Positions 1-15,030 of a stretch of DNA of 64,000 nucleotides are shown here, in pieces. Made by a program: the position numbers and the translations under genes. The notes beneath the pieces are model-generated. The model searched no databases. It was not told where the DNA came from and saw nothing but the letters and a program-made list of their open reading frames with translations. The DNA comes from Klebsiella phage KMI11. Positions within the stretch are counted from its first letter, which is position 1; each line of letters begins with the position of its first letter. The stretch is taken from sequence record MN101225.1; one strand, given 5' to 3'.

Positions 1-449
1 ACTTTACTCAATTGCATAAGTATCCTAATGTTAAGCAATGGTCACCAATGCAGAAGAAACTGGTAAAATCTAAAACCGGTTCTCCTGCTTTAGACTGCAT
101 GGTTAAAATTATTAAAGGTGACAAGAAAGATAACGTCGCTTCTATTAAAGTTCGTTCAGATTTTTGGTACACCCATGTTGATGGCGAGCGCACTCCTTCA
201 ACGAAAATGACGTTTGTTGAAGAATGTCTTGATGCTGGCGAAAACATCAAAGATTTGCTTACTGAAGAACAGTATAAGCGTTTCTTAGAAAACCGTGTGT
301 TAATCGATTTTGATTATATCCGTGAAGACATTGTTGCTAACATTTTAGATTGTTATAATAACTATCAACTACCGGGTCGTGGTAAAATTTATAGCTACTT
401 TGTTAAATCCGGTCTGTCTAAATTAATGAAAGAAATAAACAACTTTTAA
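1..449 (+). CDS. rnh: RNase H (rnh), 3' partial; frame is open to the window edge (the track start is a TTG)
   Basis: Open from base 3. Sits upstream of dsbA-33-59-32 as in T4. C-terminal region resembles the T4 Rnh tail. Confidence 0.6.
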   Translation, partial: FTQLHKYPNVKQWSPMQKKLVKSKTGSPALDCMVKIIKGDKKDNVASIKVRSDFWYTHVDGERTPSTKMTFVEECLDAGENIKDLLTEEQYKRFLENRVLIDFDYIREDIVANILDCYNNYQLPGRGKIYSYFVKSGLSKLMKEINNF

Positions 450-450
450 G

Positions 451-732
451 GTGAATATAATGGCTAAGAAAGAAAAAGAGCAAGTAGTATTTGATGAAGC
501 AGTACACGGACAGGCTCTGCGAGATATGATTAAGGAAGCCTCAGGTAATAAGCTAAAAGCAGAAAGCTATCTTGAGCTTAACAAAGACATTAAAGACCGC
601 GCCAAGAAAGAACTTGGCGTAGAAGGAAAACTGTTTAATCAACTGCTTGCTCTGTTCCATAAAGGCACACGCGATCGTTTTGAAACTGAAAAAGATGAAG
701 TGGTAGAAGCTTATGACTCTATTTTCGCTTAA
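451..732 (+). CDS. dsbA: dsDNA-binding protein DsbA (late transcription enhancer)
   Basis: 93 aa with strong similarity to T4 DsbA (MAKKE...FDEA.HG...LGV.GK.FN.LLAL.HK). Position matches T4 synteny. Confidence 0.85.
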   Translation: MNIMAKKEKEQVVFDEAVHGQALRDMIKEASGNKLKAESYLELNKDIKDRAKKELGVEGKLFNQLLALFHKGTRDRFETEKDEVVEAYDSIFA

Positions 733-1012
733 AGACGAGGGGGATACCTCCCCCTCTGAATCCATTAATCAGCTGTTAGATAAGCAAGCTAACGGATTTA
801 CTATTGAGTCTATGGTAACAGAACTTGGAATGGGGTATCTTGAAGCAACAACTCAGTGGTTAGAAGAAAATTCTATTCCTGAGGGAAACTTCAATAGATA
901 TATTCCTCCAGCAATCATAGAAAAAATTATGTCAGAAGCATTGGAAGAAAATATGCTTCGTCCATCATTTAGTCAAACACACAAAACGAATAGTCTGGAC
1001 TTTTTATTATGA
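713..1012 (+). CDS. 33: gp33 late transcription co-activator
   Basis: 99 aa. MTxFSL...ENGF.IE.MV.E.GM.YLEATT.(W/F)LEENSIPE...NTLDFLL matches T4 gp33. Synteny. Confidence 0.85.
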   Translation: MTLFSLKDEGDTSPSESINQLLDKQANGFTIESMVTELGMGYLEATTQWLEENSIPEGNFNRYIPPAIIEKIMSEALEENMLRPSFSQTHKTNSLDFLL

Positions 1013-1671
1013 TTCGTCTCCGCATGCCTAGAAATAATAACAGATACGTTAACGGTAAGAGCGTTTATCTTTTATATTTAATGCTCAAACAACACTTTGC
1101 CGGTCGATATGACGTTGTTAAGTATAACTGGGTTATGCGGGTCTCTGATAAAGCTTATCAAAAGCGTAGAGACAAATATTTCTTTGAGAAACTCGCTGAG
1201 AAATATACATTAAAAGAGTTAACACTGATATTCATGAGTAACCTCGTAGCTAATCAAGATGCATGGATTGGCGATATCAGTGATGCTGATGCCCTCGTGT
1301 TTTATCGTGAATATATAGGTAAATTGAAGCAGATTAAAACAACGTTCTCGGAAGATGTAAAGAACATTTACTATTTTGCCAAGAAAGTTAATGTAGATAA
1401 GCTTCATGATATTTTTGAATATAATGAGAAAGTCGGAACATCTTATGTGTTCAAACTTCTGCAGTCAAACGTTATATCTTTCGAGACATTCATCATGCTT
1501 GACTCGTTTTTAGATATAATAAATACACATGATACTGCAACGGATAACTTAGTTTGGAGTAATTACTCTACTAAATTAAAAGCTTATAAAAAACTTTTAA
1601 ACGTTGACGGTGCTGAAGCTAAGAAACTCTTTATTAGCATAATCAAATCTTGTAAAGAAATTAGTATATAA
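1009..1671 (+). CDS. 59: gp59 helicase loader
   Basis: 220 aa, near-identical motifs to T4 gp59 (MIRLRMP...GKSVYLLYLM...KYNWVMRVSD.AYQKRRDKYFF...WIGDISDADALVFYREY). Confidence 0.95.
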   Translation: MIRLRMPRNNNRYVNGKSVYLLYLMLKQHFAGRYDVVKYNWVMRVSDKAYQKRRDKYFFEKLAEKYTLKELTLIFMSNLVANQDAWIGDISDADALVFYREYIGKLKQIKTTFSEDVKNIYYFAKKVNVDKLHDIFEYNEKVGTSYVFKLLQSNVISFETFIMLDSFLDIINTHDTATDNLVWSNYSTKLKAYKKLLNVDGAEAKKLFISIIKSCKEISI

Positions 1672-1683
1672 TTAATCTATCGT

Positions 1684-1739
1684 CCAGTTGCAAGGACCCA
1701 TGTTGCAACAACAACTGTTAAATTTAAAAAGGTAATCAT
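1684..1739 (+). promoter_or_regulatory. gene 32 translational operator: overlapping hairpin/pseudoknot-forming repeats followed by an unstructured A/U-rich leader
   Basis: cagttg (1685-1690) pairs with caactg (1712-1717). gttgcaa (1687-1693) pairs with ttgcaac (1703-1709). Then gttaaatttaaaaaggtaatcatATG. In T4 this arrangement is the gp32 autoregulatory site. Confidence 0.5.
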
Positions 1740-2657
1740 ATGTTTAAGCGTAAAAATCCTGCTCAACTTCAACAACAACTGGCTGGTCTGAAAGGTGGTT
1801 CTTCTTTCTCTAATGAAGATAAAAACGAATGGAAACTGAAGACCGATAATGCTGGTAATGGTCAAGCAGTAATTCGCTTCCTGCCTGGTAAAGATGAAAA
1901 CTCTCTGCCGTTTGTAAAACTGATCAATCACGGTTTCAAACACGGCGGTAAATGGTACATTGAAAATTGTACTTCTACTCACGGTGATTTTGATTCTTGC
2001 CCGGTTTGTGCTCATCTGAGTAAAAACGATTCTTATAACAGCAACCCGGCTGAATATAAGCTTCTGAAACGTAAAACCTCTTTCTGGTCTAACATCCTGG
2101 TTATTAAAGACCCGGCTAACCCAGAAAACGAAGGTAAAGTATTCAAATTCCGTTTCGGTCAGAAAATTATGGACAAAATCAACGCGATGGTTGAAGTCGA
2201 TGTTGATATGGGTGAAACTCCGGTTGATGTAACTTGTGTGTATGAAGGTGCAAACTTCGTCATGAAAGTTAAGAAAGTCGGTGGTTTCCAGAACTATGAT
2301 GAATGTAAATTCCTTGGTCAGTCCGAGATTGCAAACATCAATGATGAAGAAACTCAGAAATTCCTGACCGAAAATATGGCTGACCTCAGCGAAATTGTTG
2401 CTCCATCTCAGTTTAAATCGTTTGAAGTTAACGAAGCCAAATTTAAACAGATTATGGGTACAGCAGCTCTTGGTGGTGCCGCGGCCAAAGCAGCAGCTCA
2501 AGCCGATAAAATTGGTGATGACCTGGATTCCTTTGACAAAGACCTGTCTGATTTTGAATCCAAACCGACCTCTTCTCGTTCCGCAGACGATATCATGGGC
2601 GATGCTGGTGACAGTGTTGGCGATGACGATCTGAATGATATTTTGAACGACCTCTAA
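1740..2657 (+). CDS. 32: gp32 ssDNA-binding protein
   Basis: 305 aa. [15 protein letters not shown]...[11 protein letters not shown]...[15 protein letters not shown] (zinc site) plus acidic C-terminus. Essentially T4 gp32. Confidence 0.97.
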
Positions 2658-2660
2658 TAT

Positions 2661-2688
2661 AAAGGGACCTTCGGGTCCCTTTTTCTTT
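2661..2688 (+). terminator. rho-independent terminator after gene 32
   Basis: gggacc-ttcg-ggtccc hairpin (2664-2679) followed by a ttttt tract. Confidence 0.8.
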
Positions 2689-2716
2689 ATCCCTCCAAAA
2701 ATATTTTCACAAAATT

Positions 2717-2746
2717 GTTTACAAGCCAGTTGATGAGTGATACTAT
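2717..2746 (+). promoter_or_regulatory. T4 early-type promoter
   Basis: -35 GTTTAC (2717-2722), 18-nt spacer, TGaTACTAT extended -10 (2738-2746). A-rich upstream sequence. Confidence 0.6.
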
Positions 2747-2782
2747 ATCTACATCGAAACAAAACGAGTAGAGGAAAACATC

Positions 2783-3040
2783 ATGGGTAAATTAAACATT
2801 GATATCGTGGCAGAACCTTACATCAATAAATCAGGATTTTGTACTGATTTGATTTTTGAAGATGGTTCACGTTTTTATGACACTGACCATGGTATTGATT
2901 TTGATTTAGTTATTAAAGAAGGCCCTGGTGGTGGTTGGCCAAATATTGACCTCCGTGGTTCTAAAGAAGCAGTTCGTGCTTGGTTAGAAGCAAACGATTG
3001 GGAAGATATTGACCAAATGATGGAAGACTGGAAAGAGTAA
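2783..3040 (+). CDS. hypothetical early protein (frd.3-region ORF)
   Basis: 85 aa, SD gaggaaaacatcATG, co-directional and tightly packed. Confidence 0.6.
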   Translation: MGKLNIDIVAEPYINKSGFCTDLIFEDGSRFYDTDHGIDFDLVIKEGPGGGWPNIDLRGSKEAVRAWLEANDWEDIDQMMEDWKE

Positions 3041-3081
3041 TTACCTTTGGGGGCTTCGGTCCCCACTTTGAGGAAATGATA

Positions 3082-3303
3082 ATGGCACAGGTTACGGTAG
3101 AAACATATGATTATGAACATTTCATTGAAATCATTGAAAAATATGGTTTGATTGAAGTTAGTAACAAATCTGCCCCATGGGGAGGAAACGAAATCACGGT
3201 AGAAGGTGATACTCCTACTTTATGGTTATGGCTTGAACAAGAATATTTTCCTGGCATGGATGACGAATGCCGTGAAGACACATTAACGACTTTTAGTGAG
3301 TAA
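3082..3303 (+). CDS. hypothetical early protein
   Basis: 74 aa. The second ATG is chosen because it has better SD spacing (gaggaaatgataATG). Preceded by a UUCG hairpin. Confidence 0.55.
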   Translation: MAQVTVETYDYEHFIEIIEKYGLIEVSNKSAPWGGNEITVEGDTPTLWLWLEQEYFPGMDDECREDTLTTFSE

Positions 3304-3306
3304 ATT

Positions 3307-3672
3307 ATGAAACTGAACACAGAATATCGTATTATCCCAAGTCTTGCCGCTGAGTGGGACCTTTCATCTAGCGGAAATAATCGTATGCGCTTGATGATTG
3401 AAGAGCATGGTGGTTCGTTCTTTCCTACCAAAATGCTCGAAGAAGATAATAGTTTCATCACAGAAGTAAAATTTAAAGATGGAACAACTGCTGACGCTGA
3501 AGGATTCGGAGACGCATACTTTGAAATCGCTGATTACGAATTCAAATACTTTGAGCCAGTACATGGAATTGGTGGCGTAATCCAATCTGGTCCTACCCGC
3601 TTGGACTTGATCGTTACCCCAGAAAATACAGAAGAAATGATTGACTTGATCAAAAAAGTTTTCAAAAAGTAG
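3307..3672 (+). CDS. hypothetical early protein
   Basis: 121 aa ORF abutting the previous gene. Confidence 0.55.
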   Translation: MKLNTEYRIIPSLAAEWDLSSSGNNRMRLMIEEHGGSFFPTKMLEEDNSFITEVKFKDGTTADAEGFGDAYFEIADYEFKYFEPVHGIGGVIQSGPTRLDLIVTPENTEEMIDLIKKVFKK

Positions 3673-3701
3673 TTTACATGGAGCTATGCTTGTGATAGTA
3701 T
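3673..3701 (+). promoter_or_regulatory. T4 early-type promoter embedded in a 10-bp inverted repeat
   Basis: GTTTAC 3673-3678, 17-nt spacer, TGaTAGTAT 3693-3701. Inverted repeat atggagctat (3679-3688) / atagctccat (3700-3709). Confidence 0.6.
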
Positions 3702-3729
3702 AGCTCCATAATCTACTGGAGAATAAAAA

Positions 3730-4008
3730 ATGAAACTTCAACGTCAAAGCATTAAACTTGGTTCTGAATATCGTGGTAAATGGAATTTCTGCATTTGCGA
3801 TAAAAACCCAGAAGAATTAGAGCGTGTTGAAGAAGTACTGTGCCAAATGGAAGCTCCATTCACCATGGGTGGTGAAACTGTCTATTGGAATGATTACTGT
3901 GATAACTGCCCATGCTATGAAGATGGGTATGGCTCAGGCTTCTGGATTCCAGTTGAAGATGTTGAAGAATTCAAAAAAGCATTTAAACTTGCTAAGGCCA
4001 AGAAATGA
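3730..4008 (+). CDS. hypothetical Cys-rich small protein (possible zinc ribbon)
   Basis: 92 aa. CxC...C...CDNCPC pattern. SD ggag. Confidence 0.55.
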   Translation: MKLQRQSIKLGSEYRGKWNFCICDKNPEELERVEEVLCQMEAPFTMGGETVYWNDYCDNCPCYEDGYGSGFWIPVEDVEEFKKAFKLAKAKK

Positions 4009-4094
4009 TTGAGGCTGAATTAGTAGTTTTGTTAATTTCTGTTACTGCCGCTTTTATTAGCGGCATTATATTAGGATTATTTTTATATGTCTAA
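4005..4094 (+). CDS. putative 29-aa single-TM hydrophobic peptide
   Basis: MIEAELVVLLISVTAAFISGIILGLFLYV. ATGA overlap with the upstream stop. SD aagg 7 nt upstream. Below the ORF-track length cutoff. Confidence 0.3.
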   Translation: MIEAELVVLLISVTAAFISGIILGLFLYV

Positions 4095-4111
4095 ATTTTA
4101 TTGAGGTTTAA

Positions 4112-4711
4112 ATGATTCAAATAGTTTATGCCTTTGCTCCTACAAAAACTGTAGACGGCAAAAATGAAAATGCTTTCGGTTTAGGCGATGGCCTTCCATG
4201 GAAACATATTTCCCAGGACATGAAAAACTTTGCTAATCGTACTCGAGACACTATCTTGATTTGCGGAGCAAAGACTTTTATGAGTTTTCCTGAACCTCTT
4301 CCTGGTCGTAAGACAATCGTTGTCCAAGACATGAGTCGTGCGTTGGCAACAGCTAAAAACGGATTTTTTGCTGACGCGTATGCTAGTGAAGAAGAATTTA
4401 TGGAATTTTTAGGTGGTGAACACCTTGCTGGGCACACTTCATATAATAGCACGATTACTTTCAATCGCAGTGAAAAATATTCAGTGATAGGCGGTGCCGG
4501 AATCATCCAGAAGGCATATCCATACGCAGATAAGGTTATCCAAACAATCATCAGAAAAAGTCATAGAGTGAATTCTGATGTCACTCTGCCTATTGCGTTT
4601 GTGGTGGCTCCAACCTATGAAAACTCTGGGTTTAAAGTTATTGAAAATCACTGGTATCATATTGATGAAGTGACTAACATTTCAGAGGTGGTCTATGAGC
4701 GCAAACTATGA
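4112..4711 (+). CDS. frd: dihydrofolate reductase
   Basis: 199 aa. PTKTVDG.NE.AFGLGDGLPW...GAKTF.S.P..LPGR...HWY.IDEVT matches T4 Frd. Confidence 0.9.
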   Translation: MIQIVYAFAPTKTVDGKNENAFGLGDGLPWKHISQDMKNFANRTRDTILICGAKTFMSFPEPLPGRKTIVVQDMSRALATAKNGFFADAYASEEEFMEFLGGEHLAGHTSYNSTITFNRSEKYSVIGGAGIIQKAYPYADKVIQTIIRKSHRVNSDVTLPIAFVVAPTYENSGFKVIENHWYHIDEVTNISEVVYERKL

Positions 4712-5012
4712 TATCACTCAGCTATCAGAAGACAAAGTCCAAAAGAAGTGGAAAAGATTTCCATTTAAGCATGGTATTCATCTTCTAGTTTTCAGTTATA
4801 ATGGTCTTAGCACTTATAACGGTTCAACTACAGTATATAACCGAAATGGAAATATACCTATTGAAATTGAGCGTGATTATAAGAAGATGTTCATCGGAAT
4901 GTCACACGGTAATGTGACGGTTAACGATGATGTAGTGTCTATTATTGGGCGATTTGAAAAGCGTGGGAATCAGCTTTTCTTTACTCCTCTTCAGGAAAAA
5001 TTTAATGCGTGA
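4695..5012 (+). CDS. hypothetical protein inserted between frd and td
   Basis: 105 aa. SD gaggtgg 7 nt upstream of ATG. Overlaps the frd end and the td start (ATG of td at 5005 within taATGcgTGA). Confidence 0.5.
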   Translation: MSANYDITQLSEDKVQKKWKRFPFKHGIHLLVFSYNGLSTYNGSTTVYNRNGNIPIEIERDYKKMFIGMSHGNVTVNDDVVSIIGRFEKRGNQLFFTPLQEKFNA

Positions 5013-5880
5013 ATACCAAGAATTAATTAAAGACATTTTTGAAAACGGCTATGAGACTGATGACCGTACTGGTACCGGTACTATTGCAAAGTTTGGTACT
5101 CAACACCGGTTTGATTTACAAGAAGGATTTCCGGCAGTAACTACCAAGCGTCTTGCGTGGAAAGCGTGCATTGCGGAGCTGATTTGGTTCATGCGTGGGT
5201 CTACTAATGTGCATGAATTGCGTCTTATTCAGCATGATTCATTGCTCGAAGGCAAAACTGTCTGGGACGACAACTATGAAAACCAGGCAAAAGACATGGG
5301 GTATTCCGGAGGTGAACTGGGACCTGTGTATGGCAAGCAATGGCGAGATTTCATGGGTGTTGACCAACTGAAATTGATCATTGATCGTATCAAGCAACTT
5401 CCATATGACCGTCGTCAGATTGTGACTGCATGGAACCCGGTTGATTTGGACAAAATGGCATTACCTCCATGCCATTTACTGTATCAATTTAACGTTCGTC
5501 AGGGGCATCTTGACCTCCAGTGGTATCAGCGTTCTGTAGATGTATTCCTTGGCCTCCCCTTCAACATTGCGTCATACGCGGCACTAGTTCATATCATTGC
5601 TAAAATGACAAATCTTAAACCTGGGCATTTGGTATTCACTGGTGGTAATACTCATATTTACCTGAACCATATTGAGCAATGTAAAGAAATTCTTCGTCGA
5701 GAACCGAAAGAACTTTGTGAGCTTGAAATTAATTATTGGCCTCCAGTAAAAGATAAAGAATTTCATGAATTAGCAACAGAAGAACAATTAGCTTGGGTTA
5801 CAGGAATGATGAAACCATCTGACTTTGTTCTTAAAGGATATGAATCTCACCCAACAATTAAAGGAAAGATGGCAGTTTAG
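5005..5880 (+). CDS. td: thymidylate synthase, uninterrupted (no group I intron)
   Basis: 291 aa from MREYQELIKDIFENGYETDDRTGTGT. Colinear with T4 Td exon1+exon2, including ...QRSVDVFLGLPFNIASYA... and C-terminal HP.IKGKMAV. Confidence 0.93.
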   Translation: MREYQELIKDIFENGYETDDRTGTGTIAKFGTQHRFDLQEGFPAVTTKRLAWKACIAELIWFMRGSTNVHELRLIQHDSLLEGKTVWDDNYENQAKDMGYSGGELGPVYGKQWRDFMGVDQLKLIIDRIKQLPYDRRQIVTAWNPVDLDKMALPPCHLLYQFNVRQGHLDLQWYQRSVDVFLGLPFNIASYAALVHIIAKMTNLKPGHLVFTGGNTHIYLNHIEQCKEILRREPKELCELEINYWPPVKDKEFHELATEEQLAWVTGMMKPSDFVLKGYESHPTIKGKMAV

Positions 5881-6608
5881 CAGTATAAATATGTTTCCCA
5901 ACAATCAAGTGAGCATCGTTTAGTTATAAGCTTTCTGCTTATTCCGGTAAGCCTAACAGCTTCAGCAATTGTTGGATATTCTACCCCATCTATGCTTACT
6001 CTTAGATGGGGTTTCTTTTTACCCCGCTGCGAATCAGAAATTCGTTTTCTAACTTCATCGGTATGTGTCTTCCCATAATATGGATTATTATTACCTTTCA
6101 TGTTAAGTGCAGCGTTTCTTTCTTGGAACTTTTTGCTTATTTCTATGGCGCGGTCCATGCCATACTGCTCTTCTATAGTTTTACCTTTGATAGCGCTTGG
6201 CCTACCATGTTTATGCTTGAGTTCTTCTGGCGATAATTTTGAATTGTTCTCTTTTATCGCATTTGAAATTTTATTAAGGATTTCTTGCTTTCTTGGATGA
6301 TGAGATAAAGTATCCCCAAACGATGCGTCTGCTATATTATACCCATTTTCCTTTGAGTCATATTCACGCATCCAATAATTTTCACGTTCAATAATAATAG
6401 ATTTTTCGTATGGAAGTTCTTCTATGATTTTACATACGAAAGCATCTTTCCCATGCTTATTATAAGAACGCTGCAGCTTTATTGAATGATGATTTCCATT
6501 ATCTAAATCCTTAAAGTGCCGTTTCCAACGTTCTTCAAAATTAACTGCACTTCCTATATAGTGCTTATTAGTTTTAGTGTTTATAATAACATATATTCCA
6601 GATTCCAT
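5877..6608 (-). mobile_element. free-standing GIY-YIG homing endonuclease gene, I-TevI-like (catalytic domain + NUMOD3-like linker + C-terminal HTH)
   Basis: 243 aa. GIYVIINTKTNKHYIGSAVNFEERWKRHFKDL...SIKLQRSYNKHG...IIERENYW...NGYNIADASFGDT mirrors I-TevI. YYGKTHTDEVRKRISDSQRG and TIAEAVRLTGISRKLI. Antisense to flanking td/nrdA. Confidence 0.85.
5984..6020 (+). terminator. rho-independent terminator of td, lying inside the antisense HEG coding sequence
   Basis: ccccatcta-tgcttactct-tagatgggg hairpin followed by tttcttttt. Confidence 0.7.
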
Positions 6609-6631
6609 TATATTCTCCTATATAAAAATTA

Positions 6632-6639
6632 TATTTATA
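6632..6639 (-). promoter_or_regulatory. T4 late promoter (TATAAATA) for the GIY-YIG HEG
   Basis: Reverse complement of tatttata. Lies 24 nt upstream of the HEG ATG, with SD aggag in between. Confidence 0.7.
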
Positions 6640-6664
6640 TGGGGTAACTTACTACAGAGGACTT

Positions 6665-8911
6665 ATGCAAGTAATTAAGAGCTCAGGTGTTAGTCAAGAA
6701 TTTGACATGCAGAAAATCATTAAAGTCCTCGAATGGGCGTGCGAAGGAACTAAAGTAGACCCATACGAGTTGTATGAAATTATTAAATCCCATCTGCGTG
6801 ATGGCATGAGCACTGCAGATATCCAGAAGACTATCGTTAAGGTAGCGGCGAATAGCATTTCTATTGATGAACCGGATTACCAATATGTGGCTTCTAATGC
6901 AGCTATGTTTGAAATCCGTAAGCGTGTTTATGGACAGTTTGAGCCACCTGCTTTTATTGACCACATTTCTCGTTGTGTTAACGCAAATAAGTATGATAAA
7001 GAAATCCTGAGCAAATGGTCAGCAGAAGAAATTGCTTTGCTTGATTCTTATATTAAGCATGAGCGTGATTTCACTATGACTTACGCAGGAACAATGCAAC
7101 TTATCGAGAAGTATCTCGTAAAAGACCGTCACACTGGTGAATTGTATGAAACACCGCAGTTTGCCTTTATGTTGATCGGTATGTGCTTGCACCAAGATGA
7201 TGGCGAAAATCGTTTAGCAAACGTTATTCGTTTCTATGATGCAGTTTCTACTAAAAAGATTTCATTGCCAACACCAATTATGTCTGGTGTTCGTACTCCG
7301 ACACGCCAATTCAGTTCATGTGTGGTTATTGAAGGTGGTGATAGTCTTAATTCAATTAACGAAGCTGCTGCGTCAATTACGAAATACATCAGTAAGCGTG
7401 CAGGTATTGGTATTAATGCAGGTATGATTCGTGCAGAAGGTTCAAAAATTGGATTCGGTGAAGTCAAACATACTGGAGTTATTCCTTTCTGGAAACACTT
7501 CCAAACAGCAGTTAAATCCTGCTCCCAAGGTGGGGTCCGTGGTGGCGCGGCGACACTGTACTATCCAATCTGGCACTTGGAAGTTGAAAACCTCCTCGTA
7601 CTTAAGAACAACAAAGGTGTAGATGAAAACCGTATTCGTCATTTAGATTATGGCGTTCAGATTAATAACCTGATGATTGAACGTTTGATTAAGAATGATT
7701 ACATCACTCTGTTTAGTCCCGATGTATGCTTGGGGGCTTTGTACACAGAATACTTCCGTGATGCTCAAGCGTTCCGTACATTATATGAAGAACTGGAAAA
7801 GAACCCAGATATAAGAAAGAAACGTATTAAAGCTCGTGAACTGTTTGAGTTGTTCCTTACTGAACGTGCTGGTACTGCTCGAATTTACCCGTACATGGTA
7901 GATAACGTTGGTGAATATGGTCCTTTTATTCGTGATGTGGCTACGGTTAAGCAATCAAACCTCTGCCTCGAAATTGCGTTACCAACTTCGGATGTTGGCC
8001 AAGAAGATGGCGAAATCGCGCTCTGTACACTCGCAGCATTCGTACTCGACAACTTCAACTGGCAAGACCAAGAAGAAGTTAACGAAATCGCAGAAGTAAT
8101 GGTAAGGGCTTTGGATAACCTTTTGGATTACCAAGACTATCCTGTAGACAAAGCGTTAAAAGCTAAAGACCGTCGAGCACTAGGTGTTGGCATTACTAAC
8201 TATGCAGCTTGGTTAGCAAGCAACTTTGCTTCATACGCAGATGCTAATGATATTACTCACGAAATGATGGAACGTATTCAATATGCACTCATCAAAGCCT
8301 CCGTTAAACTTGCTAGCGAAAAAGGTCCGTGCACGCTTTACAAAGAAACACGATACGGACGTGGTGAACTGCCTATTGACTGGTACAACGAAAGAATTGA
8401 CCAACTCGCAGCTCCAAACTATGTCTGTGACTGGGAACTCCTGCGAGAAGACCTCAAGCGATACGGTATCCGAAATTCAACGTTATCTGCGCTTATGCCA
8501 TGCGAATCGTCTAGCCAGGTATCAAACTCTACCAACGGTATTGAACCACCACGTGGACCAGTGTCAGTTAAAGAATCAAAAGAAGGAAGCTTCAACCAAG
8601 TCGTTCCAAATGTTGAACACAACGCTTCCCTTTATGATTATGCCTGGCAGCTCGCGAAACAGGGTAATAAGCCTTATCTGAACCAGGTTCTGATTATGCA
8701 GAAATTTGTAGACCAGAGCATCTCTGCTAATACTTATTACGACCCGGCGAATTTCCCTAAAGGCAAAGTTGAAATGTCGGTAATGATGGACGACTTGCTT
8801 TATTTCTGGTACTTCGGTGGTAAGACTCTTTACTATCATAACACTCGTGATGGTTCTGGTAACGATGATATGATTCAAGATTCTGCTGACTGCGCGGCCT
8901 GTAAGCTTTAA
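6665..8911 (+). CDS. nrdA: ribonucleotide reductase large subunit
   Basis: 748 aa. Class Ia RNR alpha features (ATP cone, C-terminal CxxC...). Synteny td-nrdA-nrdB. Confidence 0.92.
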   Translation: MQVIKSSGVSQEFDMQKIIKVLEWACEGTKVDPYELYEIIKSHLRDGMSTADIQKTIVKVAANSISIDEPDYQYVASNAAMFEIRKRVYGQFEPPAFIDHISRCVNANKYDKEILSKWSAEEIALLDSYIKHERDFTMTYAGTMQLIEKYLVKDRHTGELYETPQFAFMLIGMCLHQDDGENRLANVIRFYDAVSTKKISLPTPIMSGVRTPTRQFSSCVVIEGGDSLNSINEAAASITKYISKRAGIGINAGMIRAEGSKIGFGEVKHTGVIPFWKHFQTAVKSCSQGGVRGGAATLYYPIWHLEVENLLVLKNNKGVDENRIRHLDYGVQINNLMIERLIKNDYITLFSPDVCLGALYTEYFRDAQAFRTLYEELEKNPDIRKKRIKARELFELFLTERAGTARIYPYMVDNVGEYGPFIRDVATVKQSNLCLEIALPTSDVGQEDGEIALCTLAAFVLDNFNWQDQEEVNEIAEVMVRALDNLLDYQDYPVDKALKAKDRRALGVGITNYAAWLASNFASYADANDITHEMMERIQYALIKASVKLASEKGPCTLYKETRYGRGELPIDWYNERIDQLAAPNYVCDWELLREDLKRYGIRNSTLSALMPCESSSQVSNSTNGIEPPRGPVSVKESKEGSFNQVVPNVEHNASLYDYAWQLAKQGNKPYLNQVLIMQKFVDQSISANTYYDPANFPKGKVEMSVMMDDLLYFWYFGGKTLYYHNTRDGSGNDDMIQDSADCAACKL

Positions 8912-8967
8912 TAAAAGGGAATTATAATTAGACCACGGATGGTTAACACCACAGAATAGGAAATAGA

Positions 8968-10110
8968 ATGAGTACAGTTTTTAATACCAAGCAAGTAGAT
9001 ATCATGACCGTGCCAATGTTCTTTGGTTCTGGCCTAGGAATTGCGCGTTATGATATTCAGCGTCATAAAGTATTCGAGGAACTCATTGAGAAGCAGTTGA
9101 GTTTCTTCTGGCGACCTGAAGAAGTAAACGTTATGATGGACCGTGGCCAGTTTGAAAAACTCCCAGAGCACCAGCGGAATATCTTTACTGATAACTTGAA
9201 GTATCAATCTCTTCTTGATTCAATTCAAGGACGTGCTCCTGCAGCGGTATTTGCACCACTGATTTCTGATCCAAGCCTTGATACTTGGTTCCAGACTTGG
9301 ACGTTCAGTGAAACCATTCACAGTCGTTCATACACGCATATCATGCGTAACCTATATGTAGACCCAGCTAAAATCTTTGATGAAATCGTTCTTGATGAAG
9401 CTATCATGAAACGTGCTGAATCTATCGGTGTTTACTATGATGCTGTTACAGAAGCTCACCGCAAATGGCTAAATGCTCAAGAACGCTGCTTTAATCCAGA
9501 TAACATTGAGATTAAACAAGCTAAGCATTATCTGATGAAGGCTATGTACCTTTGTTTACATGTTATTAACGCGTTAGAAGCCATTCGTTTCTATGTCAGT
9601 TTTGCATGTACCTTTAACTTCCATAAAAATATGGAAATCATGGAAGGTAATGCTAAAATCATGAAGTTCATTGCTCGTGATGAACAACTTCATTTGAAGG
9701 GCACACAGTACATTCTGCGTCAACTTCAAACTGGCACTGATGGCGAAGAATGGGTTGAGATTGCTAAAGAGTGTGAACAAGAAGCAATTGAAATCTTCAT
9801 GGAAGTTAACCGCCAAGAAAAAGATTGGGCTATTCATCTTTTCCGTAATGGCGGTCTTCCGGGACTGAACGTTAAAATTCTTCATGACTTCATTGACTAT
9901 CTGACAGTGTCACGTATGCGTAGTTGTGGTCTTCCTTGTCCGATTACTGACGCACCAACTCGACATCCTATTCCCTGGATTCGTGAATATCTTAACTCTG
10001 ATGCAGTCCAATCTGCTCCTCAGGAAGTTGAGATAAGTTCTTATCTGGTAGCTCAGATTGACAATGATGTCACTGATGATGTTCTAATTGGATTTAAAAA
10101 GTACTTATAA
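8968..10110 (+). CDS. nrdB: ribonucleotide reductase small subunit, uninterrupted (no intron)
   Basis: 380 aa. Diiron/tyrosyl motifs (E..H, FACTFNFH). Synteny. Confidence 0.9.
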   Translation: MSTVFNTKQVDIMTVPMFFGSGLGIARYDIQRHKVFEELIEKQLSFFWRPEEVNVMMDRGQFEKLPEHQRNIFTDNLKYQSLLDSIQGRAPAAVFAPLISDPSLDTWFQTWTFSETIHSRSYTHIMRNLYVDPAKIFDEIVLDEAIMKRAESIGVYYDAVTEAHRKWLNAQERCFNPDNIEIKQAKHYLMKAMYLCLHVINALEAIRFYVSFACTFNFHKNMEIMEGNAKIMKFIARDEQLHLKGTQYILRQLQTGTDGEEWVEIAKECEQEAIEIFMEVNRQEKDWAIHLFRNGGLPGLNVKILHDFIDYLTVSRMRSCGLPCPITDAPTRHPIPWIREYLNSDAVQSAPQEVEISSYLVAQIDNDVTDDVLIGFKKYL

Positions 10111-10114
10111 GGAA

Positions 10115-10136
10115 AGGGGCTTCGGCCCCTCTTTAT
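10115..10136 (+). terminator. UUCG-tetraloop hairpin after nrdB
   Basis: aggggc-ttcg-gcccct followed by ctttatt. Confidence 0.55.
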
Positions 10137-10137
10137 T

Positions 10138-10554
10138 ATGAATGATATTGCTAACGAGTTTTCTTTTATAAAATATGTTCAACTTGAGTTAGAACCTGAT
10201 TTCAGTATTAAACCCGTTTTGGTAGCAAACAAGTTGAATGTAGTTTATGCCATCGCAGTTGATGATGAGCTGGTTTATATCGGTAAGACAAAAAATCTTC
10301 GTAAACGTATAAATTATTATAGAACTGCTATTAATCGGAAAGACCAAACCTCTGATTCAGCTAAATCTGCTAAGATTTTTGAAGCACTAATGGCTGGCAA
10401 AAAAGTAGAGTTCTATGCTCGTCAGTGTTTTAATCTTTTGATTAATAATGAACTTGGCGAGATGTCAATATCCACTATGGACTTGGAAGAACCACTTCTG
10501 ATTAAGAAGTTCAATCCTCCATGGAACACACAACATAAGGTAAAGAAATGTTAG
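10138..10554 (+). CDS. denA: endonuclease II (GIY-YIG family nicking enzyme)
   Basis: 138 aa. ...YSFIKY..LEL......NVVYAIAVDDELVYIGKTKNLRKRINYYRTAINRKD.TSDS.KSA... near-identical to T4 DenA. Confidence 0.93.
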   Translation: MNDIANEFSFIKYVQLELEPDFSIKPVLVANKLNVVYAIAVDDELVYIGKTKNLRKRINYYRTAINRKDQTSDSAKSAKIFEALMAGKKVEFYARQCFNLLINNELGEMSISTMDLEEPLLIKKFNPPWNTQHKVKKC

Positions 10555-11699
10555 AGCTATATAAAAATTTAATGAATCTGTGTGAAAGCTCAGAAGTTGC
10601 AAAATTCTTTTATAAAGATTTTACCGGTCCTATGGATGGTAAGTTCAGAGTGTTTTCATATCATTACGCAAGTTATAGTGAGTGGTTAAAACCCGATGCT
10701 CTCGAATGCCGCGGTATCATGTTTGAGATGGATGGCGATACCCCAATTCGAATTGCTTCTCGTCCGATGGAAAAGTTCTTTAATTTGAATGAAAACCCAT
10801 TAACGATGGGAATTGATATTAGCGATGTAGAATACATTATGGATAAGGCTGATGGCTCTCTAGTATCATCTTATGTCGATGATGGGTATCTATACCTTAA
10901 GTCAAAAACATCTCTCTACAGTGACCAGGCAAGACAAGCTTCAGCTTTGCTTAACAGCGAAGAATATTCTTCGCTTCATCAAGTTATTCTTGAGCTAACG
11001 CTAGATGGTTATACGGTAAACATGGAATTTGTTTCACCTAATAATCGTGTTGTTTTAGCATATCAGGAGCCACAGCTGTTTGTGTTAAACGTCCGTAATA
11101 ACACAACTGGTGAGTATGTTAAGTATGATGATTTGTACGCTAATGCTAAAATTCGTCCTTATTTAATTAATGCTTACGGAATTTCTGACCCTACTACCTG
11201 GGTTGAAGGAGTTCGTGCGCTTGAAGGCGTAGAAGGATACATTGCAGTTCTAAACACTGGGCAGCGATTTAAGGTTAAAACCGAATGGTATTCTGCTCTT
11301 CATCACACTAAAGACTCAATAACGTCAAATGAAAGACTGTTTGCGTCTGTCGTATCTGCAAATTCCGACGATTTGCGTTCTCTTTTTGCTGGAGATGAAT
11401 ATGCAATTAAGAAAATTTCTGCATTTGAGCAAGCTTATCTAGATTACCTCGGAAAGTCACTTGAGCTATGTCAGTCGTTCTACGATGAATACAGAGGTCG
11501 TGCTCGTAAAGATTATGCTATTGCTGCGCAGAAAGCCACGGTTAATCAGCGCCATTTGTTTGGTGTTATCATGAACATGTACGAAGGAACTGTAGATGTA
11601 GATAAACTGCTTAAAGACCTCGAAAGGGTGTTCTTGAAGTACTGGGCAGGATATGTTCCAAAAGAGTACGAAAAAGAAATTGAAATTTCTGAAGAATAG
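10548..11699 (+). CDS. rnlA: RNA ligase 1
   Basis: 383 aa. FRVFSYHYASYSEWL.PDALECRGIMFEMDG..P.RIASRPMEKFFNLNENP matches T4 Rnl1 (gene 63). Confidence 0.93.
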   Translation: MLELYKNLMNLCESSEVAKFFYKDFTGPMDGKFRVFSYHYASYSEWLKPDALECRGIMFEMDGDTPIRIASRPMEKFFNLNENPLTMGIDISDVEYIMDKADGSLVSSYVDDGYLYLKSKTSLYSDQARQASALLNSEEYSSLHQVILELTLDGYTVNMEFVSPNNRVVLAYQEPQLFVLNVRNNTTGEYVKYDDLYANAKIRPYLINAYGISDPTTWVEGVRALEGVEGYIAVLNTGQRFKVKTEWYSALHHTKDSITSNERLFASVVSANSDDLRSLFAGDEYAIKKISAFEQAYLDYLGKSLELCQSFYDEYRGRARKDYAIAAQKATVNQRHLFGVIMNMYEGTVDVDKLLKDLERVFLKYWAGYVPKEYEKEIEISEE

Positions 11700-11701
11700 T
11701 T

Positions 11702-11731
11702 GTTTACATCCTCATCAGAGTGTGATACTAT
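11702..11731 (+). promoter_or_regulatory. T4 early-type promoter for alc, embedded in an 11-bp perfect inverted repeat
   Basis: GTTTAC 11702-11707, 18-nt spacer, TGaTACTAT 11723-11731. Inverted repeat atcctcatcag (11708-11718) / ctgatgaggat (11745-11755); the right arm holds the SD. Confidence 0.6.
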
Positions 11732-11761
11732 AGACTTATATCAACTGATGAGGATATTGAA

Positions 11762-12271
11762 ATGGATATGCAAGCAATTACTTTAGATATGGTTGTTAAC
11801 AAATATGGTACTCATTCTGATGGGATTTTTGTGTGGAATGGTACCAAGAAGGTGGGCTTCGTCACTGACCTACGGACGCACATGGCGCGCAAGGAAGCTG
11901 CTCGTAAGAAGCAAAAAGAGTACACTAATCGTGTGAACGAGCAGCGTGCCGAAGCCCTTCCTGAAGCCGTAGATGAAATGATTGATTTCCTAGATAATCA
12001 TCTCGCGAAGTATGGTGCAGAGGTGTTCAAGAACATCACCCAGCCAAACGTTCATGCTAACGGATGCAAATGCTATGTAATCGTTGACCCGATTTATGGC
12101 AAGCATCGTCTTGGCATTATGCATCGCGAGCTGAATTATTCTGAGATGGCAGAATATGTAGAAGCTTGCTTCAAGTGTTCTCCTTCGGAAAGTTCTGATC
12201 GTCACATCCTCATTTCGGGATTATCCCGTGATGATATCGTAGAGGTTATCCTTAAACTATGCTCAAAATAA
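11762..12271 (+). CDS. alc: Alc (host transcription elongation inhibitor)
   Basis: 169 aa (T4 Alc is about 167 aa). Position between rnlA and the pseT cluster. Confidence 0.7.
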   Translation: MDMQAITLDMVVNKYGTHSDGIFVWNGTKKVGFVTDLRTHMARKEAARKKQKEYTNRVNEQRAEALPEAVDEMIDFLDNHLAKYGAEVFKNITQPNVHANGCKCYVIVDPIYGKHRLGIMHRELNYSEMAEYVEACFKCSPSESSDRHILISGLSRDDIVEVILKLCSK

Positions 12272-12612
12272 ACACAACTTGGTTGATGATTGGAGTGTTA
12301 GCATTATCCGCAGGCGGATTGAAATATCTTTCGTGGCGGGTAGAAAATCTTAAAGCTGACCTCAAAGTCGTCCAAGATGAATCTGATCGACAAGCAAAAG
12401 AAATAGAAAATATCGGTGTTTCTATAAAAAATCTGCAGACAACATATAAAGGCTATCAGGAAAACCGAGCAGCTCGTGATACTTCTAACGCTAAGATGAA
12501 TAAAGATTCTAAGCGCGGAAACGTAGTTGCAGCTAAACCTGGGTTAGTTGAAAAACAGATTAATGCAAGCTTCAATAAGTTTGCAGAAGATATCCAGGAG
12601 GCTACCAGATGA
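12259..12612 (+). CDS. i-spanin (inner-membrane spanin; PseT.3-like)
   Basis: 117 aa. N-terminal TM helix (WLMIGVLALSAGGL) then a coiled-coil periplasmic domain. Immediately followed by a lipoprotein gene. Confidence 0.7.
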   Translation: MLKINTTWLMIGVLALSAGGLKYLSWRVENLKADLKVVQDESDRQAKEIENIGVSIKNLQTTYKGYQENRAARDTSNAKMNKDSKRGNVVAAKPGLVEKQINASFNKFAEDIQEATR

Positions 12613-12896
12613 AACGAAGTCTATTAGCCATGGGTATTATCAGCCTACTTGTTGGATGTTCTTCTAGTGCACCGGATGTCCCGGTTTTGCATCCTGATTG
12701 GCCAGACCCAATTCAAAAATGGGAAGGACATTGGGAAGTAAAAGTAATTGACGGTAAAGCCTGGGTTGGTATGCCGTTTGAAGAGTCTCAAGAGTATCGC
12801 ATCTGGATGAATGACATTTTACGTTATACTAAAGATGCTAACGGAATGATATGTTATTATCGTTCTGACCTTAAAGAACCTCGTTGCGTTAAGTAA
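12609..12896 (+). CDS. o-spanin (outer-membrane lipoprotein spanin; PseT.2-like)
   Basis: 95 aa. Lipobox LLVGC at MKRSLLAMGIISLLVGCSS. Adjacent to the i-spanin. Confidence 0.7.
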   Translation: MKRSLLAMGIISLLVGCSSSAPDVPVLHPDWPDPIQKWEGHWEVKVIDGKAWVGMPFEESQEYRIWMNDILRYTKDANGMICYYRSDLKEPRCVK

Positions 12897-12917
12897 ACTA
12901 AACAAGAGGAAAATATT

Positions 12918-13403
12918 ATGGAACCGTCACACCTTCATTCTTACTTCGTAAAAGACGCATCACATCTTTTATCGATTAAAAAGACACAACTTAGGAATAT
13001 GCTAGCTGTTGGTTCGTGTCAGTTAACTCCTCTTGTTAAGAAAGCTATTGCTGTACCAGAAAATATTTCTAATGGATATGTTTATACAGTCCGTGTTAGT
13101 GTGCCTGGAGCTTTAAAAGAAAGAGTGTTTGAGCTTAATGACCAAACACGAATTTCATTTGATGTGTGGTTTAAACTATTCATGGCAGAATTTATGTATC
13201 CCGATTTTTTGGAGTTTGTTCAGCGTAAAGAGGCACTGAAGGAAGCAATTTCTGAATTGGAAGATGCCTCAATTGAATTCGGTAAGGCACTCCAATTTGT
13301 AGAAAGTGGCGGTGTAGAGCAAGATGAAGTTAACAATTTTTTGAAGAAACATGGAAAGCGTCGCTCATTGGCGCATCGCAACCTTTCTAAAATGGTGATG
13401 TAG
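12918..13403 (+). CDS. hypothetical protein
   Basis: 161 aa, SD gaggaaaatattATG. Confidence 0.55.
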   Translation: MEPSHLHSYFVKDASHLLSIKKTQLRNMLAVGSCQLTPLVKKAIAVPENISNGYVYTVRVSVPGALKERVFELNDQTRISFDVWFKLFMAEFMYPDFLEFVQRKEALKEAISELEDASIEFGKALQFVESGGVEQDEVNNFLKKHGKRRSLAHRNLSKMVM

Positions 13404-13615
13404 TGAATCAAGAACAGTATGAAACACTTAAAGGGTTAATTGCTGAAAATGAATTGGCGTGCATCGTGTTTGGACGCGCAGCTGAAAATTATGACAAAAA
13501 TGATATACTGTCAATGAATAAGCCATTGCGAGCAATTAAAGAAAAATATCGTGCTAATTGGGGTGAAAAGTCTAAGGCTCTTCATGATTTTATTGACACT
13601 CTTAAGGATGTATAA
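13403..13615 (+). CDS. hypothetical protein
   Basis: 70 aa, overlapping start/stop (TGAtg). Confidence 0.5.
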   Translation: MNQEQYETLKGLIAENELACIVFGRAAENYDKNDILSMNKPLRAIKEKYRANWGEKSKALHDFIDTLKDV

Positions 13616-14508
13616 TGAAAAAATTGGTTTTGACACAAGGGGCTCCAGGCTCTGGTAAAACAACCTGGGCTAACGAATACGTAGCAGCTAATCCCGGTTG
13701 GTATGTTTTGTCTCGTGATGATTTGCGTGAAGGCATCTTTGGCCTTGATAAACGTAATGATTACAAATATTCTAAGCTTCATGAGAAGTCAGTATCTGTA
13801 TGTCAGTTTTCTATGGCGAAGACTCTACTCGAGATGGAAACCACTAATGGTGTCATCATTGCTGATACTAACCTTAATCCAACGACTATCAAGAAGTGGC
13901 AAGAGTTGGCATACGAAATTGATGGTGTCAAGTGGGAAATTAAACGCTTTGACGTTCCTTGGACTGAATTGCTTAATCGTAACCTCTATCGTGGCGCGAA
14001 TGCAGTTCCTATTGAAGTGCTCCGTAGCTTCTACTCTAAGATGCATCCATATGATTTGTACATTCCAGATGAATCATTGCCAAAAGCAGTTATCTTTGAC
14101 CTTGACGGCACGTTAGCAGATAACAATCATCGTTCTCCTTATGACTTGGCCAAATGTGGTAAAGACCATCCAAAGGAAATGGTAATTGAATTTCTTAAAA
14201 TGCTTCGTAACAAAGGATATAAAATTCTTACTGTTTCCGGCAGAGAGTCTGGTACTAAAGAAGACCCTACTGTTTATCAACGCATTACGAAGAAATGGTT
14301 GTTGGACCATGTTGGCGAAACAGGCGAACACTTCCAACGTAAGCAAGGCGATTCACGCAAAGACGATGTGGTAAAAGAAGAAATCTTCTGGGACCGAATT
14401 GCTGATCGTTATAATGTCAAACTTGCAGTAGATGACCGAGCACAGGTAGTTGAAATGTGGCGTCGTATTGGTGTTGAATGCTGGCAAGTAGCCCACGGTG
14501 ATTTTTAG
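13615..14508 (+). CDS. pseT: polynucleotide 5'-kinase / 3'-phosphatase
   Basis: 297 aa. P-loop GAPGSGKTTWA then HAD phosphatase motif DLDGTLA. Confidence 0.93.
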   Translation: MKKLVLTQGAPGSGKTTWANEYVAANPGWYVLSRDDLREGIFGLDKRNDYKYSKLHEKSVSVCQFSMAKTLLEMETTNGVIIADTNLNPTTIKKWQELAYEIDGVKWEIKRFDVPWTELLNRNLYRGANAVPIEVLRSFYSKMHPYDLYIPDESLPKAVIFDLDGTLADNNHRSPYDLAKCGKDHPKEMVIEFLKMLRNKGYKILTVSGRESGTKEDPTVYQRITKKWLLDHVGETGEHFQRKQGDSRKDDVVKEEIFWDRIADRYNVKLAVDDRAQVVEMWRRIGVECWQVAHGDF

Positions 14509-14519
14509 AGGAAAGTATA

Positions 14520-14804
14520 ATGTTTCCAAAGTATTCCGAAGTAGTAAAAGTATCATTTACGCAAGTTGTTGCTAATCATTTAACAGATGAGTTTACTCCG
14601 GCTGAAGTAGCCAAAATGCATGCAGAGTTTTTATCTGCAATGAATGCACTTATTCCAAACGGCGAAGTTATTAAATTTTCTATTGACCGGTCAGGCGGTT
14701 CATCTGAAGTTAAAATTTCTTGTGGCGAAGGTGAACACGACTGGTTTATCGTTGGAATTATTGCTAATTTTGAAACCCAACAGGTTATGACTTATGTTGT
14801 CTGA
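14520..14804 (+). CDS. hypothetical protein (cd.x region)
   Basis: 94 aa, SD gaggaaagtataATG. Confidence 0.5.
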   Translation: MFPKYSEVVKVSFTQVVANHLTDEFTPAEVAKMHAEFLSAMNALIPNGEVIKFSIDRSGGSSEVKISCGEGEHDWFIVGIIANFETQQVMTYVV

Positions 14805-15030
14805 CGCTAAATTTTCACATGATGAATTTATTTCGAAGGTTAAAATCTTCGCACAGGAAGTAGCAAACCGGGTTCCTGGAAGTAAAGTGACTCTCCGACG
14901 AGAGTCATCCTTTAACTATGTTGATGCTTATATCATTACAGTTAATAATGGAAAGAGCAATCAACACACTCAATTGGCTTTAACCGGAACAGGCCAAGTT
15001 GAAATGACTAACATTTTAGGACATATCTAA
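14794..15030 (+). CDS. hypothetical protein (cd.x region)
   Basis: 78 aa, overlaps the upstream gene. Confidence 0.45.
   Translation: MLSDAKFSHDEFISKVKIFAQEVANRVPGSKVTLRRESSFNYVDAYIITVNNGKSNQHTQLALTGTGQVEMTNILGHI

Follow-up and report, generated by a model that had tools for sequence, protein, structure and literature searches.

An antisense, zinc-finger-less relative of I-TevI in a mobile cassette between td and nrdA of Klebsiella phage KMI11

Results

Genes at the td-nrdA locus

We analyzed a 64,000-nucleotide stretch of Klebsiella phage KMI11 (record MN101225.1), referred to here as the window, with attention to a free-standing GIY-YIG homing endonuclease gene (HEG) that lies between td and nrdA on the strand opposite to both. 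The phage is T4-like, of the genus Jiaodavirus, and the best DNA matches of the window are KMI13 (99.2%) and KP179 (96%). Along the window the genes run frd, a 105-aa open reading frame (ORF), td, the HEG on the minus strand, nrdA (6665-8911, plus strand) and nrdB. The comparative work was based on GenBank phage records, and genomes with and without the free-standing gene are called HEG+ and HEG-, respectively.

A first, sequence-only reading of the window had described td as continuous, with no group I intron, and had noted a 243-aa ORF antisense just downstream of it. The td gene is indeed matched from end to end by its Pfam family, and an Rfam scan of the whole 64-kb window detected no group I intron; the same scan picks up the ORF-less td group I intron of Tequatrovirus N2 (locus L004, 4350-4565; 72.6 bits). 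The antisense ORF was found exactly as claimed. The two stop codons had been said to overlap by 4 nt. It is the ORFs that overlap by 4 nt (5877-5880), while the stop codons themselves, TAG at 5878-5880 for td and TAA at 5879-5877 on the minus strand for the HEG, have 2 nt in common. At its 3' end td contributes its last two codons to the junction of the cassette described below.

Table 1. Coordinates of features at the td-nrdA locus in the window
Feature	Position	Strand	Details
td (thymidylate synthase), intronless, convergent with the HEG	5005..5880	+	ORF; Pfam Thymidylat_synt, 2-266 of 266, E 2e-95
GIY-YIG HEG, free-standing	5877..6608	-	243 aa, ATG start; Pfam, PDB, phrog_314
Layout of the HEG protein			catalytic aa 1-98; linker aa ~99-161; NUMOD3 aa 171-191; helix-turn-helix (HTH) aa 201-240
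Mobile cassette, ~780 bp	5874..6655		segment differing between HEG+ and HEG- Jiaodavirus genomes
Invariant right junction, nrdA ribosome-binding region AGAGGACTT	6656..6664	+	same in Jiaodavirus, Tequatrovirus and phiR1-RT; nrdA starts at 6665
T4-type late promoter TATAAATA	6632..6639	-	23 nt upstream of the HEG start codon
Shine-Dalgarno (SD) sequence AGGAG	6615..6619	-	6 nt ahead of the ATG (6608-6606); GGAG kept in homologous loci
Exchange tract relative to KMI13, the nearest HEG- relative	4871..6655		every difference in the 9.6-kb block 324-9905, which is elsewhere 100% identical, falls here
Equivalent of the I-TevI homing site in td	5527..5564	+	CNNNG motif CAGCG at 5527-5531; equivalent of the intron-insertion site follows 5553

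Sequence matches in Pfam and PDB settle the predicted fold of the HEG protein. The Pfam GIY-YIG domain matches aa 3-91 (E 1.7e-15), with the motif at the N terminus (G4-I5-Y6 and Y17-I18-G19, 10 residues in between), and the catalytic-domain structures of I-TevI, 1mk0 and 1ln0, match at E 1e-39. Where those structures were mutated (R27A in 1ln0, E75A in 1mk0), the HEG protein has R and E; in the alignment to I-TevI the catalytic N (in GYNIADA) and both His are kept as well, giving equivalents of R27, H31, H40, E75 and N90. NUMOD3 matches in Pfam at 8e-8, and there is a second, weaker stretch. The Pfam I-TevI_DNA-bd match is weak (aa 201-238, E 4.6e-4) and under the Pfam cut-off; the I-TevI DNA-binding domain of PDB entry 1i3j matches aa 162-240 at E 1.5e-8. 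The linker contains a degenerate NUMOD3-like repeat without a zinc finger. The protein falls in phrog_314, which is also the PHROG of T4 I-TevI. The relationship to GIY-YIG enzymes and I-TevI that had been read from the letters was thus borne out by database comparison.

A zinc-finger-less lineage related to I-TevI

Identity to T4 I-TevI was 45.9% over 99% of the length (tblastn E 6e-60), and elsewhere in the T4 genome, SegA-G included, nothing matched at tblastn E<=1e-5. The identity is uneven, 69% in the catalytic domain and about 30% in both the linker and the DNA-binding domain (DBD). The Cys4 zinc finger in the linker of I-TevI is a distance determinant for cleavage. Its four cysteines, C151, C153, C164 and C167, have no equivalents in the HEG protein, in which no cysteine occurs between aa 60 and 231. 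Of the full I-TevI architecture that the sequence-only reading had seen, the GIY-YIG domain, NUMOD3 and the C-terminal HTH therefore stand, but the finger does not.

The finger was absent from all seven free-standing representatives compared and present in all three that are intron-encoded (T4, Ursula and Aes508). The free-standing proteins have the C-terminal motif S-R/I-K/S-x-I-x-x-R-C, and the intron-encoded ones another, SSGLVTYRVKS. Linker and DBD identities separate cleanly by type of location, whereas catalytic-domain identities lie at 60-76% throughout with no split. The DNA behaves likewise: the catalytic-domain DNA is 70-73% identical to the intron I-TevI genes and the DBD DNA is unalignable. 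In the homolog of Acinetobacter phage Kimel, the stretch equivalent to the zinc finger has clear NUMOD3 repeats. The residues R30, K33, E36 and C39 were recently shown to tune the CNNNG preference of I-TevI (PMC12774661). Because two of these four differ in the HEG protein, which has D36 and N39, the CNNNG preference of its enzyme may differ.

By its sequence the gene belongs to the I-TevI lineage in every respect save two, the zinc finger and the intron location, and it is best named a free-standing, finger-less paralog rather than "I-TevI".

The two forms can occur together. The td introns of T4, Ursula and Aes508 encode a homolog of the HEG; in Tequatrovirus LH2 (locus L005, 4449-5186) an intron-encoded I-TevI and the free-standing paralog are both present, about 1 kb apart; and N2 has the HEG about 600 bp downstream of its ORF-less td intron. 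The contrast between the flat catalytic identities and the split in linker and DBD hints that finger-less free-standing and intron-borne enzymes may be two arms of one td-locus family, exchanging catalytic modules where they coexist, as they do in LH2, with an N2-type intron mobilized in trans by the free-standing enzyme. We consider this improbable. If it were true, the locus would show the "collaborative homing" route to mobile introns still in operation, and for the best-studied GIY-YIG enzyme.

The HEG lies in a mobile cassette that replaces nrdA.1

We aligned seven HEG+ and six HEG- Jiaodavirus genomes. The two states differ only from position 5874, in the last two td codons, to 6655, just before the nrdA ribosome-binding site, and the fixed HEG-linked differences are confined to 5874-5880 and 6646-6651. 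In HEG- Jiaodavirus genomes the slot is occupied by a 68-aa ORF and nrdA.1 (DUF4326, 101 aa), both on the plus strand. In Tequatrovirus the right junction is base-for-base identical; there, the replaced stretch begins at the third codon of nrdA.1 and stops 10 nt short of the nrdA ATG, and nrdA.2 is kept between the cassette and td. Cassette and nrdA.1 are mutually exclusive, nrdA.1 being found in 9/9 loci without a free-standing HEG and in 0/14 with one (the whole window included).

The cassette of the window is 92.1% identical to that of E. coli phage N2, whereas nrdA is 70.1%, td 67.3% and frd 55.8% identical between the same two phages; the cassette has therefore moved between genera. Intronless homing, which the sequence-only reading had put forward, fits these population data: a presence/absence polymorphism, identical junctions in two genera, and a cassette far closer between genera than the neighboring nrdA. 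The cassette is found in 26 phage records (17 Klebsiella, 9 Escherichia/Shigella). Its frequency is about 12% among the records of Jiaodavirus and a few per cent among those of Tequatrovirus. By comparison, nrdA.1 occurs at >=99% identity in 123 Klebsiella-phage records, and some homolog of it in 1452 records.

The NrdA.1 protein is 99-100% identical among the six HEG- Jiaodavirus genomes (loci L001, L002 and L022-L025), whose td and nrdA are visibly mosaic. Such conservation appears unusually strong for a small gene of unassigned role.

Cassette alleles gave ratios of nonsynonymous to synonymous divergence (dN/dS) of 0.05-0.15, with dS up to 0.67, next to about 0.04 for td, which indicates that the protein is being kept functional. 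The ORF is of full length, 243 aa, in all nine close alleles, with the catalytic residues intact, and from its sequence the cassette is probably active. These data bear on the possibility that the gene is an inactive relic of a past invasion, drifting to loss. Theory of the HEG life cycle expects decay after fixation, and in Erwinia phage Gravdalen (locus L013, 2892-3619) the HEG is broken into two ORFs, an apparent pseudogene with TATAAATA still upstream. A drifting relic is hard to square with full-length alleles under purifying selection, a conserved promoter and SD, and recent movement of the cassette between genera, and of all the explanations we considered it is the least credible.

An exchange tract separates the window from KMI13

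Over 324-4870 and again over 6656-9905 the window shows 100% identity to KMI13. The tract between these two segments (Table 1) contains two clusters of single-nucleotide polymorphisms (SNPs) in td, a dimorphic td 3' segment, and the cassette in place of an nrdA.2-like gene and nrdA.1. Its right end falls exactly at the right junction of the cassette, and to the left it extends about 1 kb into td. The tract looks like gain of the cassette by break repair, and is consistent with this rather than decisive. No second exchange tract could be read in the other Jiaodavirus HEG+/HEG- pairs, which were too mosaic. For Tequatrovirus N2 there was no near-identical HEG- partner, nothing in the region exceeding about 96% and all being mosaic.

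Jiaodavirus has two alleles of the 3' part of td (5731-5840): with one, td is 876 nt long, and with the other, which is strongly divergent, it is 861 nt long. KMI13 also lacks 7.1 kb that is present in the window (9906-17031; locus L026, ~35350). This deletion starts inside nrdB (8968-10110), so that nrdB of KMI13 is apparently truncated; no gene is annotated there in its record.

A conserved late promoter precedes the HEG

The sequence-only reading had placed a T4 late promoter and an SD of its own ahead of the HEG. Both sequences are present (Table 1), and the promoter is conserved. TATAAATA occurs 18 times in the window against 5.3 expected, and 11 of the 18 copies precede, by 16-30 nt, an ORF of 160 aa or more that begins with ATG. 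At 23 nt, the copy ahead of the HEG has the spacing usual for late genes of the window. It precedes the HEG in 11/11 HEG+ loci from seven genera, even where the cassette DNA is only about 67% identical or can be aligned solely as protein, and was not found anywhere from td to nrdA in three HEG- loci. The HEG is the sole minus-strand gene within a block of about 24 kb of plus-strand early and middle genes. As early and middle promoters cannot express it, expression late only is the natural reading. No intrinsic terminator was predicted downstream of the HEG on the minus strand, and the late transcript may thus run on antisense into td.

A second TATAAATA lies on the plus strand at 5884-5891, within the last HEG codons (Y-L-Y), and points towards nrdA. 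We considered it as a second, convergent late promoter, but there is no ORF start within 100 nt and it is kept only in the close cassette family; it is probably fortuitous. A 9-nt motif, TTACCCCAY, recurs at varying positions in the leader or promoter region of divergent cassettes (window 6643-6651, minus strand; locus L011 ~3600; locus L012 ~3623). In the window and N2 it is just upstream of TATAAATA, and in phiR1-RT, EcS1 and Gravdalen it is between the SD and the ATG. The motif might be a binding site.

Another reading is domestication, in which the HEG would no longer home and would serve the phage, for instance by late repression at the control region from which the HEG and nrdA diverge, or through a nuclease activity put to some other use. 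Its head-to-head position with nrdA is conserved in two subfamilies, TTACCCCAY recurs beside the promoter or start codon in divergent lineages, and selection has been purifying across the substantial divergence given above. I-TevI itself autorepresses its own late promoter (PMC2988022). A domesticated gene would not be expected to show the pattern of a selfish element, however, and the distribution of the HEG is patchy and of low frequency, with at least one pseudogenized copy. All catalytic residues are kept, and between genera the cassette alone was transferred. We regard domestication as very unlikely.

The free-standing form is widespread in T4-like phages

An antisense HEG with the same promoter between td and nrdA was present in the 11 lineages examined, from seven T4-like genera, at 52-82 bp from the nrdA start. 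Besides Jiaodavirus, the carriers are Tequatrovirus N2 and LH2 (93% protein identity), Yersinia phage phiR1-RT (Tegunavirus), Escherichia phage EcS1 (Kagamiyamavirus) and Gravdalen (Winklervirus), and in the Twarogvirinae the Acinetobacter phages Kimel and AbTZA1 (Lazarusvirus and Hadassahvirus). As an alternative, the sequence-only reading had suggested a snapshot of HEG evolution, either preceding association with an intron or following loss of one, and either order may hold. The free-standing form is an old and widespread lineage of Tevenvirinae and Twarogvirinae, no one-off. GenBank labels for it are "homing endonuclease", "endonuclease I-TevI" and "I-TevI-like". Our literature searches found no paper describing the td-nrdA antisense endonuclease, and a scan of IMG/VR with the HEG protein returned three distant relatives, none of them close.

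Two neighboring sites vary among relatives. KP179 (locus L003, 3064-3294) has an additional plus-strand ORF of 76 aa that the window lacks. This ORF matches nothing in Pfam and is located between nrdA and the HEG promoter; judging from match coordinates, PKO111 apparently has it as well. The forms with and without it differ by an insertion or deletion flanked by two AGAG(G)A repeats that resemble ribosome-binding sites. The nrdA-nrdB gap, only 56 bp in the window, is a second endonuclease slot in relatives, occupied by a Hef-like gene in N2 (L004, 1-664), by mobE in T4, and by other endonuclease genes in phiR1-RT and Boboto (further coordinates for this slot: L011, 5932-6597; L018, 4998-5191; L008, 8016-8714).

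Target of the enzyme

To the sequence-only reading the arrangement looked like intronless homing or marker exclusion aimed at td, and the comparison of HEG+ and HEG- genomes does not support a td target. We located the equivalent of the I-TevI homing site by comparison with the T4 exon junction, and it does not separate the two states. The 72-nt td segment over the site is identical in Merci (HEG+) and JD18 (HEG-), in KpV477 (HEG+) and Roth51 and VMC02 (both HEG-), and in Boboto (HEG+) and KMI13 (HEG-). With self and target indistinguishable in this way, a td-directed enzyme could not spare its own genome. Among the seven HEG+ and six HEG- Jiaodavirus genomes there were no HEG-linked fixed positions that might act as "immunity" substitutions in 4116-5873 or 6656-8905, and no HEG-linked SNP anywhere in td. 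With a cut in td, the td 3' allele would also travel with the cassette. This is not seen, which argues against a td target: the near-identical cassettes of the window and Nispero (99.8%) are on different td 3' alleles, and both alleles, of 876 and 861 nt, are found with and without the cassette.

We weighed these data against the reading that the enzyme is a functional I-TevI isoschizomer whose cut in intronless td falls at the intron-insertion site or close to it, about 345 bp from the cassette. Such an enzyme would spread, or exclude td markers, through long-tract repair, and the ORF-less td intron could even be mobilized in trans by "collaborative homing". The close catalytic domain and the homologous NUMOD3 and HTH modules would suit it, as would the position of the HEG, always about 0-300 bp from td. 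The window td retains the CNNNG motif at the I-TevI spacing, the exchange tract with KMI13 spans the td site, and N2 combines an ORF-less td intron with the HEG. Against this reading, besides the identical sites and unlinked alleles, is the divergence of the linker and DBD, which at about 30% identity to I-TevI are finger-less and form a separate cluster. I-BmoI, the GIY-YIG endonuclease of the Bacillus mojavensis thyA intron, cuts thyA. It is a diverged relative of I-TevI, built on the same modular plan, and shows that low DBD identity alone does not rule out recognition of a thymidylate synthase site (PMC12774661). There is also precedent for a free-standing HEG cutting an adjoining intron-insertion site, in collaborative homing (PMC2988022). 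Taking both sides together, we find a td-cutting enzyme unlikely, and the target of the HEG enzyme is probably different from that of I-TevI, as far as the sequences indicate.

A target in conserved coding DNA outside the replaced segment, for example in the 5' region of nrdA or at a distant locus, is also conceivable and in our judgment quite unlikely. HEG+ and HEG- genomes would then be cut alike or weakly discriminated, and the cassette would spread by biased repair or marker exclusion against more distant phages. In favor of such a target, neither the right junction of the cassette nor its spacing of 52-56 bp from the nrdA start varies between genera. Weak discrimination is reported for some T4 Seg enzymes. 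Free-standing T4 endonucleases, moreover, typically cut hundreds to thousands of bp from their own gene (PMC2988022). Yet the intervals given above, 2.25 kb of nrdA and 1.75 kb leftward of the cassette, hold no immunizing polymorphism, and late self-cleavage would be costly for a gene that is under purifying selection.

In Tequatrovirus nrdA.2 separates the cassette from td, and the element that is always replaced is nrdA.1, just upstream of nrdA. Because nrdA.1 and its junction with nrdA are the sole DNA present in every HEG- and in no HEG+ genome, they are by elimination the favored target. We tentatively place the likeliest site at the nrdA.1/nrdA junction or within the 3' part of nrdA.1, which is conserved, and consider this quite possible. 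Conservation of the nrdA.1 DNA between T4 and JD18 is good and includes identical blocks of 19-24 nt.

Discussion

The locus is likely to represent a free-standing, "seg-like" HEG of the I-TevI lineage, carried by a cassette of about 780 bp just upstream of nrdA that replaces nrdA.1 and, in this genus, the 68-aa ORF as well. It is an uncharacterized member of a well-known kind and is already annotated in public genomes.

From homology and position we infer its late timing, cleavage activity and target, and propose the following course of events. The gene would stay off through the earlier stages of infection; late on, the late sigma factor of the phage would start transcription at the gene's own TATAAATA, giving a leader of about 17 nt with a strong SD. 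By homology to I-TevI the enzyme would be a monomer. The HTH at its C terminus, together with two minor-groove elements of the NUMOD3 type, would hold it on a long asymmetric site, and the tethered GIY-YIG domain, with its catalytic residues intact, would make a double-strand break some distance off. In mixed infection with a HEG- relative, the break would be repaired from the HEG+ genome, and repair would copy the cassette in, remove nrdA.1 and co-convert adjacent td sequence. By analogy, the mechanism should be like that of I-TevI, a monomer with a tethered GIY-YIG domain, expressed late, and the spread should be like that of the T4 Seg enzymes, by intronless homing.

Several observations count against this explanation. 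The cassette is rare, perhaps rarer than one would expect of an efficient homing element. The split Gravdalen copy shows that the lineage does decay. The exchange tract would fit equally well if ordinary recombination had removed the HEG from KMI13, or if the break had been inside td. Since td is more polymorphic here than nrdA, the asymmetric divergence around the cassette is weak evidence. The target, moreover, is assigned purely by elimination, and searches for a recognizable site in the promoter or in the replaced segment did not point to one. The promoter of I-TevI bears a look-alike of its homing site. We compared the HEG-nrdA intergenic regions of the window (56 bp), phiR1-RT, EcS1, Kimel and AbTZA1 with the HEG- DNA from td to nrdA, scoring ungapped 20-mers and gapped local alignments with shuffles. 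In this search for operator-type similarity of the HEG promoter to HEG- DNA, only the common nrdA ribosome-binding segment scored. The best likeness to the T4 td homing site in the replaced segment of T4 and JD18 was 15/27, no better than shuffled sequence. An apparent resemblance of TGGGGTAACTTAC / TGGGGAAATTAC to nrdA.1 was not significant.

The HEG has much in common with the T4 Seg genes (SegA-G), which are likewise free-standing GIY-YIG genes between conserved genes, sporadic in distribution and with middle- or late-type promoters of their own, and for which co-conversion of flanking markers is expected (PMC2988022). It differs from them in sequence, its similarity to the Seg genes failing the tblastn threshold of E 1e-5 that I-TevI passes at 6e-60, and in orientation, being antisense to its neighbors. 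Among the endonuclease genes of T4, segD alone is not co-oriented with its neighbors, and it lacks a promoter of its own (PMC2988022). An antisense HEG with a dedicated late promoter is therefore unusual, though not unprecedented in kind. The HEG also replaces a resident gene, whereas Seg genes sit in intergenic gaps.

A slot with alternative occupants has a parallel. In the work of Sandegren, Nord and Sjoberg of 2005 (cited in PMC2988022), SegH/Hef and mobC/mobE were reportedly alternative occupants of one slot in the nucleotide-metabolism cluster of T4-like phages, much as the HEG cassette and nrdA.1 exclude one another in one slot upstream of nrdA. There, however, HEG replaces HEG, and here what is replaced encodes a DUF4326 protein without a nuclease signature. 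Collaborative homing (Bonocora & Shub 2009; cyanophage F-CphI/psbA; PMC2988022) and the trans homing of T4 mobE (PMC2790892) resemble the present locus in that the HEG adjoins a gene that is intron-bearing in relatives. The homologous endonuclease is encoded within the intron of adjacent td in T4, Ursula and Aes508, and N2 pairs an ORF-less intron with the HEG. Cutting of the intron-insertion site appears disfavored here, unlike in those systems, as HEG+ td is intronless and its site identical to that of HEG- genomes.

With I-TevI the HEG protein shares a GIY-YIG domain with the catalytic residues, the modular order of catalytic domain, long linker, NUMOD3 minor-groove element and C-terminal HTH, a late promoter with a TATAAATA-type box, the td locus and PHROG 314. 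The I-TevI gene, by contrast, lies within the td intron in sense orientation, and the HEG lies downstream of intronless td on the opposite strand. The HEG linker has a degenerate NUMOD3-like repeat where I-TevI has its Cys4 zinc finger, and the td homing site could not serve the HEG enzyme as a discriminating target. The "I-TevI" label in many GenBank records is thus misleading, since the HEG is not intron-encoded and its target is probably different.

I-TevI is the reference GIY-YIG homing endonuclease and a scaffold for genome editing. The lineage described here is a natural, widespread paralog in which the catalytic domain has been kept, the zinc-finger "ruler" is swapped for a second NUMOD3 repeat, the DBD is different, and the gene lies outside an intron. 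It may be used to compare how linker architecture sets cleavage distance and how such enzymes switch targets. KMI11 and KMI13, which differ in the cassette, nrdA.1 and part of td, would provide a clean natural system for the study of intronless homing and gene replacement.

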